From an uncultured virus (IMG/VR IMGVR_UViG_3300030376_002698) (Duplodnaviria; Heunggongvirae; Uroviricota; Caudoviricetes): a stretch of 20,000 bases of DNA. The position numbers were made by a program, and so were the translations under genes. This document shows, in pieces, positions 1 to 13,302 of this stretch; the first letter of the stretch is position 1, and every line of letters begins with the position of its first letter. The notes below the pieces were generated by a model. The model did no database searches and was not told the origin of the DNA. It saw only the letters and a list, made by a program, of their open reading frames with translations. The stretch covers positions 53,596 through 73,595 of the IMG/VR virus record IMGVR_UViG_3300030376_002698. One strand, given 5' to 3'.

Positions 1-49
1 TAGCTTTTGCATGTTTTATATTTTTTAAATTTATAGCTTTACTAATCAT
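1..49 (-). CDS. small basic MISK-type protein (partial, runs off window)
   Basis: ATG at 49 reads MISKAINLKNIKHAKA and stays open to the window edge. Same N-terminus as three upstream ORFs. Not in ORF track. Confidence 0.65.
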   Translation of the reverse strand, partial: MISKAINLKNIKHAKA

Positions 50-72
50 ATTAACAGTTCCATTTCTTTAAT
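47..72 (-). repeat. 26-bp near-identical copy of 240..265 (3' end of DUF6321-like gene plus next start codon)
   Basis: catatta[a/g]cagttccatttctttaat at 47-72 and 240-265, one mismatch. Confidence 0.9.
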
Positions 73-92
73 TATTTTTTTGTTTTCTTTTT
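71..92 (-). repeat. 22-bp exact copy of 524..545 (3' end of ORF 525..800, KKTKK-stop)
   Basis: attatttttttgttttcttttt at 71-92 and 524-545. Low complexity, but it abuts the 26-bp repeat. Confidence 0.75.
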
Positions 93-242
93 TTTAGTAG
101 GCTTTGCTTTTTTTAGCATACTTTTTTTACTTGCAATGGCAGATCTAAGTTCTTTAACAGAAGAATAATTTTCTGGGTTAATTTTTCGCATACCTATACT
201 TGATAATTTTCTATTTATTGCACCTAAGTTTATACTTTTCAT
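72..242 (-). CDS. small Lys-rich protein, 56 aa
   Basis: Hand translation MKSINLGAINRKLSSIGMRKINPENYSSVKELRSAIASKKSMLKKAKPTKKKKTKK. Starts 1 nt after the upstream stop (TAA-T-ATG). Not in ORF track. Confidence 0.7.
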   Translation of the reverse strand: MKSINLGAINRKLSSIGMRKINPENYSSVKELRSAIASKKSMLKKAKPTKKKKTKK

Positions 243-243
243 A

Positions 244-525
244 TTAGCAGTTCCATTTCTTTAATGCTTTATTAATTCTTGAGTTTGGATCATTAGCAGT
301 CTTTTTAGAAGTTAATCGTTTCTTCATGCCACCCATTCTTGCACAAAATGATTTTCTTCGTTTAGCAGCTTTAGATCCTTTTTTTAATTTACTTGGTTTT
401 GTAGTTACAGCAGTCTTTAGTTTACTACCTGGATTAGCACGTCTGTACGATGCTACACCCTTTTTGTTTAATCCACCAGAAGAACTTTTACCTTCTTTAC
501 GTTGCCATGCAGGAGATTTTGCCAT
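244..525 (-). CDS. basic phage protein, DUF6321-like
   Basis: AWQRKEGK..GGLNKKG..YRR.NPGSKLK...RRKSFCARM...SRINKALKKWNC matches the motif pattern of this widespread phage family. Confidence 0.75.
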   Translation of the reverse strand: MAKSPAWQRKEGKSSSGGLNKKGVASYRRANPGSKLKTAVTTKPSKLKKGSKAAKRRKSFCARMGGMKKRLTSKKTANDPNSRINKALKKWNC

Positions 526-800
526 TATTTTTTTGTTTTCTTTTTATTTTGTACAGATCTACCTACTGCACCAGCAGTCGCTCCAAGACCTGTACCTACT
601 ACGCCTCCAACAAGTATACCAGGACCATATTTTTTAATTGTTGGCTTTGCTCTTCTACCATATCTTTTTGCCATTAATTTTGCAGTTTCTTTTTTGCCTA
701 TTAATTTACTTGCTGATTTAGCTTGTTTTATATCTGTTTTTAATGTGGTTTTTACACCATGGAATGCACTTCTAGCTGCATTTACATATTTACTGATCAT
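525..800 (-). CDS. small basic MISK-type protein with C-terminal glycine-zipper-like segment
   Basis: ORF track. GILVGGVVGTGLGATAGAVG segment. TAATG coupling to next gene. Confidence 0.75.
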   Translation of the reverse strand: MISKYVNAARSAFHGVKTTLKTDIKQAKSASKLIGKKETAKLMAKRYGRRAKPTIKKYGPGILVGGVVGTGLGATAGAVGRSVQNKKKTKK

Positions 801-814
801 ATTATATACCTTTA

Positions 815-1027
815 TTATTTCTTTTTATTATCTTTTGTGCCTAATTTATAAGCACCATAAAGAAATCCAGCTTTTACAGGTATTCCAATTGCTGAACCTA
901 CTATCATTGCTTTTGTCATAGGATCTGCTTTACTATATTTTCTACCTAATTTTTTTTTAACAATTTTAGATTTTCTACCTGTGTTTTTTAAATAATTAAA
1001 AGCTTTTTTTGATGCTTTACTGATCAT
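815..1027 (-). CDS. small basic MISK-type protein with hydrophobic Gly-rich C-terminal segment
   Basis: ORF track. Strong SD (AGGAGGT). AMIVGSAIGIPVKAGFLYGAY segment. Confidence 0.75.
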   Translation of the reverse strand: MISKASKKAFNYLKNTGRKSKIVKKKLGRKYSKADPMTKAMIVGSAIGIPVKAGFLYGAYKLGTKDNKKK

Positions 1028-1047
1028 ATTATATACCTCCTATTCCT

Positions 1048-1395
1048 TTAAAAAGGAACATATATTGTTTTTGTTGCTAATTTAAATTTAACTGATTGTT
1101 TTCTTTGAGGTCTTGACAGTAAATTTTCTTTTCTTTCTGACTTTTTTAGATCTTTATACTTAGATTTACTTAAGGGAAAAGTTCCCCATTTAGAAGAACC
1201 TTGTGATTTAAATTTTTTATCCATGTATTTTCTTTGTGCTTTTAAACCTCTACGAGATCTATACAGAACATTTCTCACTGATGGCTGTCCATAATCGCCA
1301 GTTGTTTCAAATTGTGTTTTGTATCTCTTTAAACTTTTTGATTTACTTTTACCAAAAGCTTTTGTGCCTGCTCGAATAGCTGCTTTACTGATCAT
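1048..1395 (-). CDS. small basic MISK-type protein
   Basis: ORF track. ATGA overlap with terL stop. K/R-rich. Confidence 0.75.
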   Translation of the reverse strand: MISKAAIRAGTKAFGKSKSKSLKRYKTQFETTGDYGQPSVRNVLYRSRRGLKAQRKYMDKKFKSQGSSKWGTFPLSKSKYKDLKKSERKENLLSRPQRKQSVKFKLATKTIYVPF

Positions 1396-2684
1396 ATTAT
1401 ATACCTTGTATCTACGTTAATATCTTTAGCCCAATCTGATCTTTCAGGCGCTTCGCCTACACACCCATATCTAAAACTGTCAGATCCGTGTGAAGCCCAG
1501 TTATGATGGGGTTTATTTTTAAAGACTTGGTTCTTATCATCAAATACCTTTTTATATTGTTTGAGAGCTTCGATGCCTTGTTTGCATCTTATTCTATCAA
1601 ACCAACAATTAGGTAATGTGTTTCTTACGGATTCTATACCGTGATCTACTTCTAGTTTAGGAGCTACTTCAAAGTTTAATCCTAACTCTGCAGCTACTTC
1701 TAATCTAGATTTACCTGTGCCTAGTTCCCTAGTTACAATATCGTGTGGAGCTATATGTGCACCATAGTTATATGGCTTTTCATTTAACTTACTTACATAA
1801 AATGCTAATGATTCACCATTTGTTTCATAGTAATCAATTAGTCTTACTTCGTTATTAACTCGTTGTGCAAACCAAATTGCAGTAGAGTCACCAATACCTA
1901 AATCCCACCATGTTTCTACATCTACTGTAGGATCATATGGTACATCACCTATACGTTTTTCTTTTTCTGCTTGTTCCATTAAAGCACCATAATAAGCACC
2001 TTGTACTGCAGCATTAAATGAACATTCATACTCCTGTTGAAATTGTGAGTCTGGCATAGTGCGTTGTGCATCTTCTAACTCCCAGTCAGGAATAACATTA
2101 GTGTCAGATGATCTATACATACAACCATACCAATCTCCACTATCAGTACGTTTTGCAAAATCAAATACTTCCCAGAACTGATTATGCCCCATTGGTGTTC
2201 CTATAAAGATAACAAACCCAAGTTTATCAGATACTGCAGGTCTTATAATCTCAGTCCAGGTACGAGGTGACATAAGAGCAAACTCATCTAATACTACTCC
2301 ATCAAACCCTAGTCCACGAAGTGCATCTGGATTGTCAGCACCAAATATCTGTATTCTTGATCCGTTATATAAATCTATTTTTAATTCTGTTTCGTTTCTA
2401 CCACCACCAAGTTCCATTAATGGTTCTGTATATTCTTTGAGATAGTCAAAAGCTACAGCCTTACCTTGTCGGTAGGTAGGTGCTATGTAAGCTAATCTAG
2501 CATTATCTTTTTCAACAGCAGTAGCTACTAGTTTCCATATAGCTAGGCAGGTCTTACCAAAACGTCTATGACAAACAATAACATTAAATCTTTTTAAGTT
2601 TTGGAATACTTCCCACTGATACTTACGAGGTGTAAACGGTATTGTTATTTCTTTTTGTTTTACTTCTTTTCTGGTGCGTGGCAT
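1392..2684 (-). CDS. terL: terminase large subunit
   Basis: Walker A HRRFGKT, Walker B VVLDE, coupling motif GTP, FQQEY, nuclease motifs WDLGIGD and HGSDSFRY. Confidence 0.97.
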   Translation of the reverse strand: MPRTRKEVKQKEITIPFTPRKYQWEVFQNLKRFNVIVCHRRFGKTCLAIWKLVATAVEKDNARLAYIAPTYRQGKAVAFDYLKEYTEPLMELGGGRNETELKIDLYNGSRIQIFGADNPDALRGLGFDGVVLDEFALMSPRTWTEIIRPAVSDKLGFVIFIGTPMGHNQFWEVFDFAKRTDSGDWYGCMYRSSDTNVIPDWELEDAQRTMPDSQFQQEYECSFNAAVQGAYYGALMEQAEKEKRIGDVPYDPTVDVETWWDLGIGDSTAIWFAQRVNNEVRLIDYYETNGESLAFYVSKLNEKPYNYGAHIAPHDIVTRELGTGKSRLEVAAELGLNFEVAPKLEVDHGIESVRNTLPNCWFDRIRCKQGIEALKQYKKVFDDKNQVFKNKPHHNWASHGSDSFRYGCVGEAPERSDWAKDINVDTRYII

Positions 2685-2947
2685 AAATTTATACTAATTG
2701 GTTTTTTGCTATCACCAGTTATTTTGTGTTCCTTACTTGCTAATCTAGCATGCACGAAAGGTGCAGCTTTCTCTGCAGCCCACATCTTCCGTTCAGGAGA
2801 AGTACCAGGATTGTTTAAGACATTCAACATATAATCCAACGGTGTTCTACTTGCACCCCTAATTTTAGCTTCAAGATTAGCGCCTTTACTGCCATCTTTT
2901 ACGCCTTTAGGTCTACCAGCTCCTGGTCTTTTACCGCCATGTGCCAT
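2660..2947 (-). CDS. terS: terminase small subunit (putative)
   Basis: Immediately upstream of and overlapping terL. N-terminal GGKRPGAGRPKG, then TPLDYML...AAEKAAPFVHARL, typical of small phage TerS-like proteins. Confidence 0.75.
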   Translation of the reverse strand: MAHGGKRPGAGRPKGVKDGSKGANLEAKIRGASRTPLDYMLNVLNNPGTSPERKMWAAEKAAPFVHARLASKEHKITGDSKKPISINLCHAPEKK

Positions 2948-3222
2948 TATACTCTTACGCCTCTACGTCTTAGAGCTTCATTAAGTCTATTAGTTCTACC
3001 ACGTTGTACAGCTTTACCTTGTGTATATCCTATAGTACCAGCAGCACCGCCACCAATAGTAACAGGGTTAAGTAATGCTTTACCTGCTAATGTCTGTGCA
3101 CCACCTAATACTGTTTTCTTTTTAGTAGACTTTTTCTTGCTTTTTTTCTTTTTCTTTTTAAATATCTTGCTTTCTTTATTAGAAGCTTTTTTAAATAGCT
3201 TACTTGCAACTTTACCTATCAT
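2947..3222 (-). CDS. small basic protein (MIGK start, poly-Lys, Gly-rich C-terminus)
   Basis: ORF track. Coupled by ATGA and TAATG overlaps on both sides. Confidence 0.75.
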   Translation of the reverse strand: MIGKVASKLFKKASNKESKIFKKKKKKSKKKSTKKKTVLGGAQTLAGKALLNPVTIGGGAAGTIGYTQGKAVQRGRTNRLNEALRRRGVRV

Positions 3223-3575
3223 TTTGCCCTCCTTTTGGCATTTTTATATCTAGCCATTTGTAGTCTTTCTGACCTATTAACAGCTTTACGTTGTTGTGCT
3301 TTACTTACTGATCCAAATTTACCACCAAAATCTGTAGTCATATATCCAGTTGGTTTACTTCCTACAGGTTCAGGTCTTGACACTTTATCAAATTCATAAA
3401 CTTCTTTTTTTGGTTTTATAGCTTGTTGTTTCTTAAAAGTCTTAGCATACTTTTTAGTTGGCTTACCAGCAATAAACGCAGCTAATTGATCTTCATTTAA
3501 TTTATCTTTTAATTTTTTAGGTTTTTTTTTCTTAGTTGTAAGGTACTTAGAAGCAAACCTACTTATGCGAACCAT
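3219..3575 (-). CDS. basic hypothetical protein
   Basis: ORF track. K-rich. Coupled on both sides. Confidence 0.75.
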   Translation of the reverse strand: MVRISRFASKYLTTKKKKPKKLKDKLNEDQLAAFIAGKPTKKYAKTFKKQQAIKPKKEVYEFDKVSRPEPVGSKPTGYMTTDFGGKFGSVSKAQQRKAVNRSERLQMARYKNAKRRAK

Positions 3576-3826
3576 TATCTATTTAATAGACCAGGCATCA
3601 TTGCATCTCTAGTTGTTGGCGGAGCCATACGTCTAGGTTGTTGCATTTGATTCATTTGTGGAGGTACAGGTGCAGCTCCCATAGGTCCAGGTACATTAGA
3701 TACTTGTCCTGGTTGCTGTGGTTGTACCATTTGTTGTTTTGCCATAACTATCTTACCGAGAGTTTGTAACTCATTAGCTGATAGTGCAGATATTTCTTCT
3801 GCTAGTGTAACTAAACTTTTAGCCAT
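3575..3826 (-). CDS. Gln/Pro/Met-rich low-complexity protein
   Basis: ORF track. N-terminal helix followed by Q/P-rich tail. TAATG overlaps at both ends. Confidence 0.75.
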   Translation of the reverse strand: MAKSLVTLAEEISALSANELQTLGKIVMAKQQMVQPQQPGQVSNVPGPMGAAPVPPQMNQMQQPRRMAPPTTRDAMMPGLLNR

Positions 3827-3987
3827 TATAATAGTCCTTTTTTAGTATTATTTACCACTAACTTTACGTCTGGTTGTGGTGTATATTCGATGTCAAGTTC
3901 TTTCTTATATCTAATAGGAGCAGATTCTTTAGTACCATTTAAGGCTTTTATTAGGTTAGCAATAACCTCTTTATCTGATTTACTCAT
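3826..3987 (-). CDS. hypothetical protein, 53 aa
   Basis: ORF track 3826..4011. Start moved to ATG 3987 (MSKSDKEV) to minimise overlap with the upstream gene. Confidence 0.6.
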   Translation of the reverse strand: MSKSDKEVIANLIKALNGTKESAPIRYKKELDIEYTPQPDVKLVVNNTKKGLL

Positions 3988-4249
3988 CTCCACCAGCGAA
4001 TGCAGCAGCACCTATAGATGCATATCCAACAGGTCCTTGTACTTGTCTACGAATGGTATTTAATCTGCCTTTGCCTTTTAGACCTACAGCACCTCTTATA
4101 CCTGATTCTTTTGTTTTAGTTTTAGCATAAGTTTTTGTACCTTTTACTCTAGATATTTTAGCCCCTGCCTTTTTTTTGCCTTTAAGTACTTTTCTAGCAG
4201 TTTTTCTGCCAAGTACTTTAGCTGTTAGTCCTACAATTGGTAATGCCAT
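3980..4249 (-). CDS. small basic protein with Gly/Ala-rich C-terminus, 89 aa
   Basis: ORF track 3980..4291. Start moved to ATG 4249 (MALPIVGL) behind an AGGAG SD. Confidence 0.7.
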   Translation of the reverse strand: MALPIVGLTAKVLGRKTARKVLKGKKKAGAKISRVKGTKTYAKTKTKESGIRGAVGLKGKGRLNTIRRQVQGPVGYASIGAAAFAGGDE

Positions 4250-4262
4250 TGTGTTTGTTCTC

Positions 4263-4502
4263 CTATCTATAAGCTCGTGTTTTACGAGCAATGTTTTTTG
4301 GTTGTTTTACGTGTTGTTTACCTTTTTTAGTGCCTTTACGCTTTGCTCTTGTAGTAGCAGCGTATTCTTTAGCCGATAACGACTTAATAGCTTTCTCAGG
4401 TAGGTATCTTTCACCTGTTTTAGCAGAAGGTTTACCAGATTTGGTCCGCCATTTCTGTTTACCCCAGTTCTTTAAGCTCTTTTGAGACTTCTTCAGGGTC
4501 AT
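4263..4502 (-). CDS. basic protein, C-terminal half of DUF5872-like family
   Basis: QKSLKNW..QKWRTKSG...ERYLPEKA...LS..EY..T..AKR.G..KGKQ motif. Confidence 0.7.
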   Translation of the reverse strand: MTLKKSQKSLKNWGKQKWRTKSGKPSAKTGERYLPEKAIKSLSAKEYAATTRAKRKGTKKGKQHVKQPKNIARKTRAYR

Positions 4503-4672
4503 TTATAACCGCCACCACCAGCCTTGTAGCGTTTCGCTAGCATTTGGGCTTTACGTGCCGACCATTGACCAGCTTTACCGCCCTTTGTGCCAGATTTTAT
4601 ACTCTGGAACATGCGTTTACGCATACCAGGCTTAGTATAGTTTCCAGCCTTGTTAACGGTACTCTTAGCCAT
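4499..4672 (-). CDS. basic protein, N-terminal half of DUF5872-like family, 57 aa
   Basis: Hand translation MAKSTVNKAGNYTKPGMRKRMFQSIKSGTKGGKAGQWSARKAQMLAKRYKAGGGGYK. ATGA overlap with next gene. Not in ORF track. Confidence 0.8.
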   Translation of the reverse strand: MAKSTVNKAGNYTKPGMRKRMFQSIKSGTKGGKAGQWSARKAQMLAKRYKAGGGGYK

Positions 4673-4675
4673 GAC

Positions 4676-4777
4676 TTATAGTACTATTACTAGTACGAGT
4701 ATAGCTGCACATGCAATTACTACGCCTTTTTTTTGCATAGTTAGTCCGTGCCATTTATCCAATATAATTTTTTTCAT
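4676..4777 (-). CDS. 33-aa single-pass membrane peptide
   Basis: Hand translation MKKIILDKWHGLTMQKKGVVIACAAILVLVIVL. AAGGA SD. Fills the gap exactly. Confidence 0.65.
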   Translation of the reverse strand: MKKIILDKWHGLTMQKKGVVIACAAILVLVIVL

Positions 4778-4780
4778 AAT

Positions 4781-4933
4781 TTATCCTTTGTTATGCTTCA
4801 TTTGTACTGGAAACTTAGCTGTTAAGCTAGCTCCCTTATGTTTTTGAAATTTACCTGTATGCTTCATAAGCTTAAAACCTTTACCAGCTTTCATCCAATG
4901 AAAACCTGCAGGTGCTTTAACGTTTTTATTCAT
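4781..4933 (-). CDS. 50-aa basic protein (KAPAGFHWM motif)
   Basis: Hand translation MNKNVKAPAGFHWMKAGKGFKLMKHTGKFQKHKGASLTAKFPVQMKHNKG. TAATG coupling. Confidence 0.7.
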   Translation of the reverse strand: MNKNVKAPAGFHWMKAGKGFKLMKHTGKFQKHKGASLTAKFPVQMKHNKG

Positions 4934-5019
4934 TACTTTTTCTTACCTTTTTTCTTCTTAGATTTCATGATCTTATCTTTGAGAGCTTTAGGTAATGTCA
5001 TCTGTTTCTTAGTAAGCAT
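4933..5019 (-). CDS. 28-aa Lys-rich peptide
   Basis: Hand translation MLTKKQMTLPKALKDKIMKSKKKKGKKK. Stop overlaps next start. Confidence 0.65.
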   Translation of the reverse strand: MLTKKQMTLPKALKDKIMKSKKKKGKKK

Positions 5020-8763: not shown

Positions 8764-8923
8764 ACAGTTATTACTAAAACTCAATAATCATCTTGATATG
8801 TATCATGGCATTATGGCTGGTCAAGCAGTCGGATGCGAACATAGAGAGATGGAGCAAGCACAGCAATTAGCTGAAATATTACAAATTAACTTGGATACTT
8901 ATGAGGAGGAACGTAATGGTTAA
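8747..8923 (+). CDS. hypothetical protein, 58 aa
   Basis: Hand translation METIREQLLLKLNNHLDMYHGIMAG...YEEERNG. GGAGG SD. Fills the gap between neighbours. Confidence 0.65.
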   Translation: METIREQLLLKLNNHLDMYHGIMAGQAVGCEHREMEQAQQLAEILQINLDTYEEERNG

Positions 8924-9680
8924 ACACATTGCAACTAAACCACAAACTACTAATAATTATAGTATGTTTAAATTCAAACATGGTAATAGACCAGTAGATC
9001 AAGCTCATGTAAAAAAGCTGATTACATCTATGACCGAAGTATATGTACCGCAAACAATTTATGTCAACAAACGACACGAAATAACTGACGGTCAACATAG
9101 ATTCACCGCAGCTAAAGCACTAGGTCTACCTATTACTTATATGGTTACAGATCATTCATTGGATGATATCCGTAGGATGAACCAGAACAATAAGAACTGG
9201 AGTATAGATGATTTTCTTAGCTCTTATGTAAGTATAGAAGCTAAAAAGAATCCTGAAACAGTTGGTCCATATGGTGTATTCAAACACTTTAAAGACATTA
9301 CTGGTTTTGGTAATGCAACTTGTATCATGATGCTATCTGATGTAGCATCAAGTACTATTGGATTAGTTCATTCTAGTGTAATCAAAACATTCAAAAGCGG
9401 TGAGTTTGTTATACCCCCTGGTCAGTTTGAAAAAGCTAAACGCCAGGCTAAAATGATTAATTTAGTTGGTCATTTTTATGAAGGTAACAAACGTAGATCG
9501 TTCATTGCAGCGTTTATACAGGCACTAAATGATGAGAAGTTTGATTTTAAAAAGTTTATAAGAAAACTAGAATTAAATCGAAGTAAGCTATTTCATTGTA
9601 CTAGTACTGATGAGTACCTAGAGGCTATACAAAAGCTGTACAATTGGGGTGATAAAAAGAAAACTAAACTAAGGAGATAA
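8916..9680 (+). CDS. ParB/Srx N-terminal-domain protein
   Basis: NRPVDQAHVKKLITSM...IYVN...ITDGQHRFTAAKALG. Start moved to ATG 8916 behind GAGGAGG. Confidence 0.8.
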   Translation: MVKHIATKPQTTNNYSMFKFKHGNRPVDQAHVKKLITSMTEVYVPQTIYVNKRHEITDGQHRFTAAKALGLPITYMVTDHSLDDIRRMNQNNKNWSIDDFLSSYVSIEAKKNPETVGPYGVFKHFKDITGFGNATCIMMLSDVASSTIGLVHSSVIKTFKSGEFVIPPGQFEKAKRQAKMINLVGHFYEGNKRRSFIAAFIQALNDEKFDFKKFIRKLELNRSKLFHCTSTDEYLEAIQKLYNWGDKKKTKLRR

Positions 9681-12524: not shown

Positions 12525-12848
12525 TCATTTGCAAGATTTATTCCATAATAAAGCTGCATAAATTGTCGGTTCTAAACAGTAGTTTAACCAGAACTTACGT
12601 TCATTGCCATATTGTTGATGTAATTCCATATGGTGAAACATGCATAATGGTACAGTTTTAGAGTCACAAACCTTTAATCCCATAGCTGCATGTTGGGTAA
12701 ATGTAAGATGATGTGCATGAATATCGTAATCTGTCTTACAAATACAGCAAGAAAGCTCTCTAATAAGCTTTAAATGCTTAGGAGAACGGTGTCTAGGCTC
12801 TATACTAGGGTCAAATAATGATTTATCTATGCGTTTGCGCTTAGCCAC
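12525..12848 (-). CDS. DUF968-like Zn-binding HNH-type protein
   Basis: R...HL..IR.L.CCIC...HAHH...G.K..D...VPLC..HH.ELH..G.E..FW. Start moved to GTG 12848. Confidence 0.75.
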   Translation of the reverse strand: MAKRKRIDKSLFDPSIEPRHRSPKHLKLIRELSCCICKTDYDIHAHHLTFTQHAAMGLKVCDSKTVPLCMFHHMELHQQYGNERKFWLNYCLEPTIYAALLWNKSCK

Positions 12849-13302
12849 GTATGGTATTACCTTTGTTTTGTAGACCAAAATGAAATGCAGCTTCACCTAA
12901 AGCTTCTCTAAGTCTATGACCTCCATAGTATTTAGACCATTTCATTCTTCTATTTAAATCTGATATAGAATAACCTTCACCACAGACAAGATCAAGGACA
13001 ATAGCTGATGTAGGACCAACTACAGAGTTGCATCTAGCTAGTTCTTGCATAGCATCTAATTTATGATCTGCTATATCACCTTTGCCTGTTACGTCTATTT
13101 TTTCAGATAAACCAGCAGTACGTGCACCTATTAGTGATATTTCAAATAATTTACGATATTTAAGACCAGCAGAGTATTGAATACTTGAAATTAAGTTACG
13201 ATTACGTAAAGTATCAAGAGAACATTCACGAAGATTCATAACACGAACATAGCTGCCTTGTTTTAAAACTGGGGCTATATCTCGTTTATCTTCTTTGTCC
13301 AT
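12841..13302 (-). CDS. DUF6456-like putative transcription regulator
   Basis: L..L....LI...QY.AG.KY...VG.....VLDLVCGEG.SI...RLREAL..AA.HFG pattern with C-terminal HTH. Confidence 0.7.
   Translation of the reverse strand: MDKEDKRDIAPVLKQGSYVRVMNLRECSLDTLRNRNLISSIQYSAGLKYRKLFEISLIGARTAGLSEKIDVTGKGDIADHKLDAMQELARCNSVVGPTSAIVLDLVCGEGYSISDLNRRMKWSKYYGGHRLREALGEAAFHFGLQNKGNTIRG

Follow-up and report, generated by a model that had tools for sequence, protein, structure and literature searches.

Phage genomes are mosaic, but the sequences at which their modules are exchanged are rarely visible. In poxviruses, gene accordions are formed when a tandem array of one gene expands and contracts through recombination between repeats. 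The promoter-early stem-loop (PeSL) elements, as described in excerpts of Arbiol et al. 2010 (PMC2839356) and Comeau et al. 2014 (PMC4122927), are mobile cassettes with a regulatory role that occupy hyperplastic regions of T4-type phages, where mini-circles are formed by exchange between nearby repeats. Under the boundary-sequence model (Susskind & Botstein 1978; Clark et al. 2001, as cited in an excerpt of PMC3029335), short conserved linkers are the sites of homologous exchange between phage modules. The internal proteins of T-even phages have a capsid targeting sequence in common and, in T4, are packaged with the DNA, make lysine contacts and counter host defence (excerpts of Rao & Black 2010, PMC3012670). 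An earlier note on the DNA analysed here did not recognise the locus as a described system; PeSL cassettes and boundary sequences are described analogues, so there is precedent for it. The island itself appeared undescribed in the literature found on hypervariable small basic genes between terminase and portal in pelagiphages, although a supplementary table of PMC11094077, a marine virome paper whose excerpted text mentions hypervariable regions encoding packaging functions, may list comparable regions. Literature on DUF6321 and DUF5872 held nothing that bears on the island.

The window (the whole 20,000-nt stretch of DNA that was analysed) comes from an uncultured marine phage in which the interval between the large terminase gene (terL) and the portal gene is a fast-changing row of tiny genes for highly basic proteins. 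Where the earlier note counted at least six small genes in this interval there are exactly six, namely MISK1, MISK2, MISK3, DUF6321, MKSI and MISK4, and the exchange sequences at their boundaries are explicit. The portal gene lies just beyond the window (record 51195-53327). The genes of the island and its neighbourhood are as follows:

2947-4933, minus strand: second variable block of small basic genes, upstream of terS; includes MIGK91, with an N-terminus like that of MISK2
2660-2947, minus strand: small terminase-like gene, 95 aa (PHROG 641, terminase small subunit, E 8.5e-8)
1392-2684, minus strand: terL, large terminase, 430 aa; its final 11 nt are the upstream half of linker J1
1048-1395, minus strand: MISK1 ORF, 115 aa, pI 10.8; no Pfam or PHROG family
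815-1027, minus strand: MISK2 ORF, 70 aa, pI 10.5; Gly/Ala-rich hydrophobic stretch
525-800, minus strand: MISK3 ORF, 91 aa, pI 11.1; Gly-rich hydrophobic stretch and KKKTKK tail
244-525, minus strand: DUF6321 gene, 93 aa (Pfam PF19846); its 3' end forms linker J2
72-242, minus strand: MKSI, 56 aa; mosaic, with an N-terminus like MISK4 and a 3' end like MISK3
1-49, minus strand: MISK4, 82 aa, first 16 codons in the window; extends to record 53396

The best phage matches to terL were HTVC106P (49.6% identity) and HTVC010P-type pelagiphages, with weak Pfam matches to Terminase_6N/6C; Pelagibacter phage HTVC106P and Methylophilales phage Venkman are distant relatives of the clade that carries the island. 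DUF6321 matched PF19846 over model positions 1-72 of 72 (69.5 bits against a gathering cutoff of 28.5; E 4e-19). The mosaic make-up of MKSI is seen in two repeat families, D1 (14-80 vs 207-273 at 75%) and D10 (71-95 vs 524-548 at 96%). MISK4 is followed by a 69-nt spacer, which contains the terL 3' end in degenerate form, and then by the portal gene.

Two types of short linker head these genes. J1 is a 23-nt unit, AGGTATATAATATGATCAGTAAA, made up of the final 11 nt of terL, an ATG and three further codons that give the MISK start; J2 is a 26-nt repeat made up of the last ∼22 nt of the DUF6321 gene and ATGA. Their copies in the window are:

1384-1406, minus strand: J1 copy 1, the real terL end (RYII, TGA) overlapping the MISK1 ATG in an ATGA stop/start overlap
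1016-1038, minus strand: J1 copy 2, intergenic at this site, preceded by GGAGG; RNA unstructured
789-811, minus strand: J1 copy 3, exact 23-mer
239-264, minus strand: J2 copy 1, the DUF6321 3' end (..KKWNC, stop) and the ATGA of MKSI; repeat family D1
46-71, minus strand: J2 copy 2, non-coding at this site, precedes MISK4

The three exact J1 copies are those that the earlier note had reported, against 0 expected: none of 200 dinucleotide-preserving shuffles held the 23-mer three or more times at up to three mismatches, and the entire 73,595-bp record held only three matches at up to two mismatches. The degenerate fourth copy claimed at 36-53 stood in part. Its start half (ATGATTAGTAAA, heading MISK4) matches J1, but its upstream half is of the J2 type. 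A fourth, degenerate copy of the terL-end half of J1 (AGGTATATAATAT) is found outside the window, directly 5' of the portal ATG (record 53329-53341). J1 thus precedes MISK1, MISK2, MISK3 and, as its terL-end half, portal, and J2 precedes MKSI and MISK4. In codon 2 of J1 copy 3, four relatives (L090, L100, L101 and L016) have ATT where this phage has ATC.

As in PeSL regions, a hot spot contains small non-essential ORFs with short regulatory repeats between them, and ORFs are inserted, deleted or replaced at the motif from one close relative to another; the PeSL motif likewise ends in a Shine-Dalgarno site followed by the next gene's start codon (as far as the excerpts of PMC2839356 and PMC4122927 describe it). 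The linker differs in having neither a sigma-70 promoter nor a stem-loop terminator, in being only 23-26 nt long, and in taking in the coding end of the gene before it together with the opening codons of the gene after it. The island furthermore resides in the late terL-portal operon of a phage with a ∼37-kb genome, whereas PeSLs are found in the early regions of T4-type myoviruses. Promoter-like sites within positions 1-5000 numbered 14, against 15.4 expected from shuffles, and none was common to the three linkers; the linker contains TATAAT without a conserved -35. No terminator-like site was found on the minus strand, and no inverted repeat or hairpin in the linkers, the single inverted repeat of the 1.8-kb array (10 nt) being within MISK3. 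Five junctions folded as RNA gave z-scores of +1.41, -1.12, +1.10, +1.12 and +0.59, as expected for an open translation start. J1 is therefore an unstructured Shine-Dalgarno/start unit and, because it has no promoter or hairpin, is not a PeSL, although by analogy it appears to work like one. With the boundary-sequence model (as cited in the excerpt of PMC3029335) the locus shares short sequences at the boundaries of otherwise unrelated genes, and mosaic junctions that coincide with them; it differs in that the linkers are explicit, stem from the 3' ends of terL and DUF6321, and recur in tandem in a single genome.

The gene content of the interval was compared across 80 of 486 related loci plus metagenome loci, divided into a close clade (terL at least 87% identical) and a next clade (terL 68–70%). 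The earlier note had anticipated a variable gene set with breakpoints at the repeat, and this is what the alignment of intervals showed. Among the close-clade loci listed, the 27 complete terL-to-portal intervals, which may include repeats of one assembly since metagenome loci possibly duplicate IMG/VR contigs, fell into 11 gene architectures of 282 to 1660 nt. Six of the 11 were found in at least two contigs; terL-MISK2-MISK3 came from a single contig (L014, the same as L100). DUF6321 is the constant member, present in 27/27. MKSI was found in the 1660-nt architecture only. Among the next-clade loci listed, terL adjoins portal in 50/50, with an ATGA overlap at all 30 junctions inspected, and the two genes also adjoin in HTVC106P and Venkman; this distribution suggests that adjacency is the ancestral state.

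Different ORFs do occur behind the same terL-end repeat, as the earlier note had proposed, the first gene being one of seven kinds (MISK1, MISK2, MISK3, MIVK43, MSIN64, MNKK43 or DUF5872-N) or else DUF6321 directly. The MISK genes form a nested series behind terL, with MISK3 alone, MISK2-MISK3 and MISK1-MISK2-MISK3, and a reordered MISK2-MISK1' also occurs. MISK2 directly follows terL in L012, L013, L035, L105 and L100, and MISK3 does so in L101, L016 and L090. Each of the three directly follows terL in at least one genome and a different cassette in others, and the switch point is always the 23-mer linker.

Homology between close relatives breaks off at the linker. L016 (terL-MISK3) and L100 (terL-MISK2-MISK3) are 99.2% identical over the last 600 nt of terL and differ by exactly one cassette, MISK2, and one linker. 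L008 and L010, with flanks 99.8% and 98.4% identical, differ by MISK4, as an indel bounded by linkers. L022 and L024 have flanks that are 98.6% and 99.6% identical, yet differ by whole cassettes, and this phage and L007 (flanks 99.6% and 99.0%) have six and two genes, respectively. Relatives with flanks at 98–99.8% thus differ by whole genes at a tandemly repeated 23-nt unit taken from the end of an essential gene and a start codon. The identity of cassettes also disagrees with that of their flanks. MISK2 is identical to that of L100 at 201/201 nt, with terL at 88.5–93.2%; MISK1 is only 69.8% identical to that of L012, with terL at 92–97%; and MIVK43 of L007 and L022 is 95.5% identical, with terL at 83.8% and DUF6321 at 83.7%. 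Cassettes so much more or less alike than their flanks require exchange between lineages. MNKK43 is in the terL-portal gap in L021 and upstream of terS in L008 and L013 (87–89% nucleotide identity), which points to movement of a cassette from one site to the other.

We consider it likely that the locus is a hyperplastic accessory-gene island at the terL/portal junction, consisting of linker-headed cassettes that are exchanged by recombination at the linkers. A clade of ∼37-kb marine phages would have acquired it at a site where terL and portal were originally adjacent. Its genes would be translationally coupled, each headed by a copy of J1 or J2, with the last 11 nt of terL in J1 doubling as Shine-Dalgarno site and spacer, so that the linker would be a ribosome-loading site and an identity stretch at once. 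Recombination at linkers, within one genome or between co-infecting relatives, could then add, remove, reorder or replace whole genes, and because the linker would serve both roles every product should keep its reading frame and its expression within the late operon; the island genes are presumably expressed late. The earlier note's view of the repeats as recombination handles fits the gain, loss and swapping of genes at linkers, with the amendment that there are two linker types, and we infer that the linkers cause the exchanges, by homologous or short-homology recombination, rather than mark them. Its comparison to an accordion fits loosely: an array may expand and contract by recombination between repeats as in poxviruses, but the units are different genes rather than copies of one gene, and no head-to-tail copies were found, nor was any Rfam family, tRNA or cassette-scale tandem repeat. 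The locus may offer a compact, testable case in which short homology and translational coupling let a phage try new small genes while its essential late operon stays intact, and suggests that such exchange operates in small abundant marine phages too, beyond the T4-type.

The same array could, though we think it unlikely, be a tandem family of fast-diverging paralogues in which the 23 nt are a selected translation-initiation region, perhaps with occasional gene conversion, and in which ordinary deletion or illegitimate recombination produces the variants; gene boundaries would then look special merely because other products are inviable. MISK1-3, MIVK43 and MIGK do share a loose N-terminal pattern (MI-x-K ... 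[KS]AF, the [KS]AF motif being within the first 14 residues of MISK1, MISK2 and MISK3), and MKSI can be seen to be a partial copy of MISK4 that has since diverged. A relaxed linker pattern was carried by 18 metagenome contigs, of which 8 were unrelated and had it at the head of unrelated genes, so the linker resembles a generic AT-rich Shine-Dalgarno/start region and its conservation may be partly functional. Many junctions in relatives are also without a common linker, and none was recognisable at several junctions such as MISK3/DUF6321 and that of the DUF5872 pair. The gene bodies, however, have no detectable homology. Profile pairs of MISK2, MISK3 and MIGK, built from only 2–5 sequences and thus shallow, gave hhalign probabilities of 0.7–10%, with 0.7% in two of the three pairs and the highest value stemming from a weak 24-residue N-terminal match of MIGK to MISK2 (E 0.003, probability 10%). 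The earlier note's statement that the bodies are unrelated is therefore largely correct, this match and the loose motif being the exceptions. Moreover, identity is either complete or absent and stops abruptly at -11 and +12 around the ATG, the upstream half copies terL coding sequence rather than a Shine-Dalgarno site only, and the discordance of cassettes and flanks described above requires exchange between lineages. A BLASTP comparison for paralogy returned many weak K-rich matches without composition correction and was not trusted.

Dedicated site-specific recombination of the integron type, with the repeats as sites of a recombinase, would account for cassettes that each carry one gene and no promoter, all point the same way and are joined by a repeated junction, but is extremely improbable: no integrase or other recombinase family was recognised by Pfam and/or PHROGs among the 59 window ORFs, many of which have no family, the linkers have no attC-like imperfect inverted repeat or hairpin, and their sequence, coding or ribosome-site, is a copy of that of adjacent genes. 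That metagenome assembly of short repeats and mixed strains produced the array or the variety of architectures is very improbable as well. The record is a join of two related ∼37-kb genomes, contigs break in the DUF6321 stretch, where their summed depth is very high, and one architecture comes from a single contig; against this, the three-copy array is also present in an IMG/VR contig (L006) and two scaffolds (L096 and L102), with the 1660-nt form identical in L006, L102 and partly L096, and six of the 11 architectures, as noted, occur in at least two contigs. Logan contigs of run X1, whose assembly words exceed the repeat in length, bridge all three J1 copies with 0 differences. The repeats are thus very probably not the assembly artefact that the earlier note had allowed for. 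No recombination event in progress was caught in the runs, all 22 of which consisted of contigs, which cannot show rare variants; X1, which has the long form at a contig depth of ∼55, gave no joint within the array. Run X4 held contigs of the long array together with contigs of the minimal terL-DUF6321-portal form, and the joints in X4 and X6, from strains ∼5% apart aligned at 90% likeness, reflect co-occurrence and not recent exchange. A joint from 469 to 1242 (side 21, depth 2.7) was seen in run X5, and there were joints within terL (2469-2609); uncovered bins in X5 and X6 are uninformative.

The cargo of the exchanged cassettes is uniform in charge: the cassette proteins have pI values of 10.3–11.9, all above 10, and 25–38% K+R, in agreement with the earlier description of a different K/R-rich ORF (MISK1, MISK2 and MISK3) behind each repeat. 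The MISK start heads four of the six island genes, and related MI-x-K starts head other cassettes. The ORFs are under purifying selection, with dN/dS below 1 for cassette genes, 0.15–0.52 for the MISK type (0.38 for MISK3; 0.43 for MISK1 against the L012 allele, whose protein is 57% identical) and 0.04–0.18 for DUF6321. Pfam and PHROGs returned nothing for MISK1-4, MKSI, MIVK43, MSIN64, MNKK43 or MKGK60. Only three clusters of MISK3 homologues were found among 5.8 billion proteins, in a search that needs shared 5-residue words and may miss distant relatives. The ESM Atlas gave no usable match for MISK1 and only unnamed viral clusters (<0.9) for MISK3; its own models were poor (pLDDT 0.47 and 0.61). 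MMKS48 and MKKK45 produced chance-level matches only (Pfam E 0.06, PHROG E 0.0068).

It is possible, and we propose it tentatively, that phage DNA is what the cassette proteins act on or accompany, for instance as proteins inside the virion or injected together with it. Like the T-even internal proteins (as presented in the excerpts of PMC3012670), they are diverse small basic proteins with at most a short N-terminal sequence in common; unlike those, the common MISK start is limited to four of the six genes and, at four residues, is too short to be taken for a signal, and packaging here is a guess. A membrane role for the four proteins with Gly-rich hydrophobic stretches is doubtful. Improbable as a whole is a fuller reading in which the small, lysine-rich proteins would form an arsenal under rapid reshuffling, enter the capsid with the DNA and be injected along with it, so that small marine phages would have a functional equivalent of the T-even internal proteins. 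The MISK leader and linker would then combine ribosome start, recombination handle and incorporation signal, and the ubiquitous DUF6321 module would be a conserved DNA- or capsid-binding anchor. If this were true, cassette turnover would follow the defence systems of hosts among the abundant bacteria of the ocean. Among the scanned window ORFs, no protease was recognised. The AF2 model of DUF6321 is helical (pLDDT 80.5); Foldseek found 0 matches to it in the PDB, and the best of 48,161 chains compared by VIA-align was within noise (Z 4.6). Other DUF6321 proteins were the sole returns from BFVD. Few small modules of marine phages are as widely shared as DUF6321.

The virus record is 73,595 bp long, and the window is its final 20 kb. 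Self-comparison resolved the record into two related, colinear genomes of ∼37 kb lying head to tail (∼72% nucleotide identity at offsets of 36–39 kb); the window falls in the second of them. The "100% complete" estimate for the record is misleading because the record joins two genomes. The first genome lacks the island, and its terL abuts the portal gene. Six small ORFs were counted on the minus strand of the second genome, in agreement with the earlier note, which had placed at least six small genes between terL and portal (window coordinates unless stated otherwise):

2660–2947, minus: terS-like gene (PHROG 641)
1392–2684, minus: terL; identity is 49.6% with Pelagibacter phage HTVC106P, 47.4% with Methylophilales phage Venkman
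between terL and portal, minus: six small ORFs, the island
244–525: DUF6321 gene of the island, widespread and conserved
record 53329–53395 (window −266 to −200): 69-nt spacer before portal, containing a degenerate terL 3'-end copy
record 51195–53327, just beyond the window, minus: portal, 710 aa; scaffold and capsid genes come next

The putative scaffold gene contains a run of 10 N (record 50896–50905).

The repeat observation was confirmed. Exact copies of the 23-nt linker J1 lie on the minus strand at 1384–1406, 1016–1038 and 789–811, its first 11 nt being the last terL codons (R-Y-I-I), followed by an ATG overlapped by terL's TGA stop and nine final nucleotides that encode I-S-K. Three matches were reached in 0 of 200 shuffles, and no fourth copy was found in the whole record at ≤2 mismatches. 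The 1660-nt array recurred unchanged on a separate IMG/VR contig (L006) and, among other scaffolds, in full on L102 and in part on L096, while Logan contigs from sequencing run X1, possibly the source sample, spanned positions 486–1718 and all three 23-mers with 0 differences (position in locus L001 = window position + 712).

A terL search for relatives returned 80 loci among 486 confirmed. In all 50 loci with terL 68–70% identical, terL abuts portal, with an ATGA stop/start overlap in 30/30 inspected junctions; the same adjacency was found in HTVC106P and Venkman, and it is therefore the ancestral state. The close clade (terL ≥87% identical) comprised 27 complete intervals, namely 21 searched loci, five metagenome loci and the window's own genome, with possible duplicates as some metagenome loci may repeat IMG/VR contigs. 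The gene set of these intervals is not fixed, and 11 architectures were present.

Architectures of the terL-to-portal interval in the close clade (D, DUF6321; the other names are cassettes; MISK1', the MISK1 allele of locus L012)
D alone; 282 nt; 5 loci
MIVK43-D; 410 nt; 3 loci
D-MISK4; 513 nt; 1 locus
MISK3-D; 554 nt; 1 complete locus and partial L016
DUF5872N-DUF5872C-D; 647/651 nt; 5 loci
DUF5872N-C-MKKK45-D; 786 nt; 1 locus
MSIN64-DUF5872N-C-D; 845 nt; 1 locus
MIVK43-DUF5872N-C-MMKS48-D; 933 nt; 2 loci
MNKK43-MKGK60-DUF5872N-C-D; 963 nt; 1 locus
MISK2-MISK1'-D-MISK4; 1073 nt; 4 loci
MISK1-MISK2-MISK3-D-MKSI-MISK4; 1660 nt; 3 loci
terL-MISK2-MISK3, partial twelfth architecture; L014 (same contig as L100)

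Contigs of four sequencing runs were also placed on the interval at 90% likeness. Run X4 contained the long form at a depth of ∼7 with 0 differences, together with portal–DUF6321 and DUF6321–terL joints at a depth of 12–14 that correspond to the minimal architecture, and run X6 yielded a contig reading terL-MISK3-like-DUF6321. These joints stem from related strains, not fresh recombinants.

Breakpoints fell at the linkers, with different ORFs behind the same repeat, as the earlier note had anticipated, and shared sequence always started at the linker's AGG. The internal copies sit behind unrelated sequence, hence the sharp start of identity at AGG; it ends equally sharply after AAA. For each of MISK1, MISK2 and MISK3, some genome has the cassette immediately after terL and others have it after a different cassette; MISK2, for example, precedes MISK3 in the window and MISK1' in L012. 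The cleanest comparisons came from near-identical pairs: L016 and L100 (99.2% identity across the final 600 nt of terL) differ by one linker together with MISK2, L008 and L010 (flanks 99.8% and 98.4%) by MISK4 behind the second linker, J2, and L022 and L024 (flanks 98.6% and 99.6%) in MIVK43 and in MMKS48 versus MKKK45, while the window's genome has six genes versus two in L007 (flanks 99.6% and 99.0%). Codon 2 of MISK3 is ATC in genomes of the window's type, as in its neighbours, and ATT in L090, L100, L101 and L016, which is compatible with crossover or conversion inside the linker, a point change being equally sufficient.

Several cassettes were far more, or far less, similar than their own flanks, a sign of exchange between lineages. 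The window and L100 have the same MISK2 (201/201), yet their two terL halves match at 88.5% and 93.2%; the MIVK43 copies of L007 and L022 agree at 95.5% (terL 83.8%, DUF6321 83.7%); and MISK1 is only 69.8% identical to the L012 allele (terL 92–97%). Taken as a whole, the data support recombination at gene-boundary repeats, and we infer that the linkers caused the exchanges.

The supposed degenerate copy at 36–53 shares the start half of J1, yet its upstream half belongs to J2, which consists of the final ∼22 nt of the DUF6321 gene and is repeated before MKSI (239–264) and before MISK4 (46–71). MKSI is itself a mosaic, resembling MISK4 over its first ∼15 codons and matching the MISK3 end at 96% over its last 25 nt. 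Immediately before the portal ATG, the terL-end half occurs a fourth time, again exactly. It closes the ∼40-nt degenerate terL 3'-end copy (77% identity), which looks like a scar left by whatever event opened the junction between terL and portal.

The systems described in print that come closest are the promoter-early stem-loop (PeSL) cassettes of T4-type phages (PMC2839356, PMC4122927) and a boundary-sequence model (PMC3029335), and the island operates like both. However, two defining PeSL features, promoter and stem-loop, are absent from its linker, and the island is therefore a variant rather than a PeSL member. A PeSL identity for the linker was rejected: promoter-like sites were not enriched over positions 1–5000 (14 vs 15.4 expected), the coding strand had no terminator-like site, junctions were unstructured when folded as RNA, and no junction carried an inverted repeat. 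The linker instead looks like a translation start, with AGG, AAGG or GGAGG 8–11 nt upstream of the ATG, and the ATGA overlap by which terL and portal were ancestrally coupled is kept. A relaxed linker pattern headed unrelated genes on unrelated contigs (L091–L095, L098, L099, L103, L104, L106), including 8 of 18 metagenome contigs, those eight without a terL or portal match. The linker thus resembles a generic AT-rich ribosome site plus start, and part of its conservation is therefore functional.

Cassette bodies had no detectable relationship to one another, as originally proposed. All 14 types encode proteins of pI 10.3–11.9 with 25–38% K+R. MISK2, MISK3, MSIN64 and MKGK60 each have a Gly/Ala-rich hydrophobic 17-mer (Kyte-Doolittle 1.55–1.82). 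Based on dN/dS (0.15–0.52 for MISK-type cassettes; 0.04–0.18 for DUF6321 and DUF5872), the cassettes are coding and under constraint. Among 5.8 billion proteins, MISK3 matched just 3 clusters; DUF6321, by contrast, matched at least 7,983 at E of 1e-5 or better, the best 120 listed being 79–96% identical to the query. Across 30 aligned DUF6321 sequences, W7, C61 and a terminal W-N-C are invariant, and the predicted structure is helical and matched no known fold. Cyanophage proteins of 100–1143 aa carry DUF6321 as their C-terminal module, and depositors named some of them "virion protein" or "structural protein". Given these annotations, the late-operon position and the charge, our best guess is that the cassette proteins may have a DNA-associated or virion-internal role. 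The internal proteins of T4 have only a targeting sequence in common, touch DNA via lysines and act against host restriction (PMC3012670).

DUF5872 is consistently split into two adjacent ORFs with a TAATG overlap (L019:4249–4625, likewise L020–L031), of 46 aa (profile positions 1–39) and 76–78 aa (positions 54–108), both under purifying selection (dN/dS 0.07–0.17). A pair at window 4263–4672 is weakly similar to them, below Pfam significance.

Upstream of terS (2947–4933) lies another variable block, again of small and very basic genes, with its own single-gene indels among relatives. It holds look-alikes of MMKS48 and MKKK45, and the MNKK43 cassette, first behind terL in L021, occurs upstream of terS in L008 and L013 (87–89% nucleotide identity). 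The MIGKK gene of this block (79–81 aa) was present only in L008 and L014. The early or middle region encodes a ParB-like protein that matches GmrSD_N below threshold (8901–9680) and an HNH/DUF968 endonuclease-like ORF (12525–12896).
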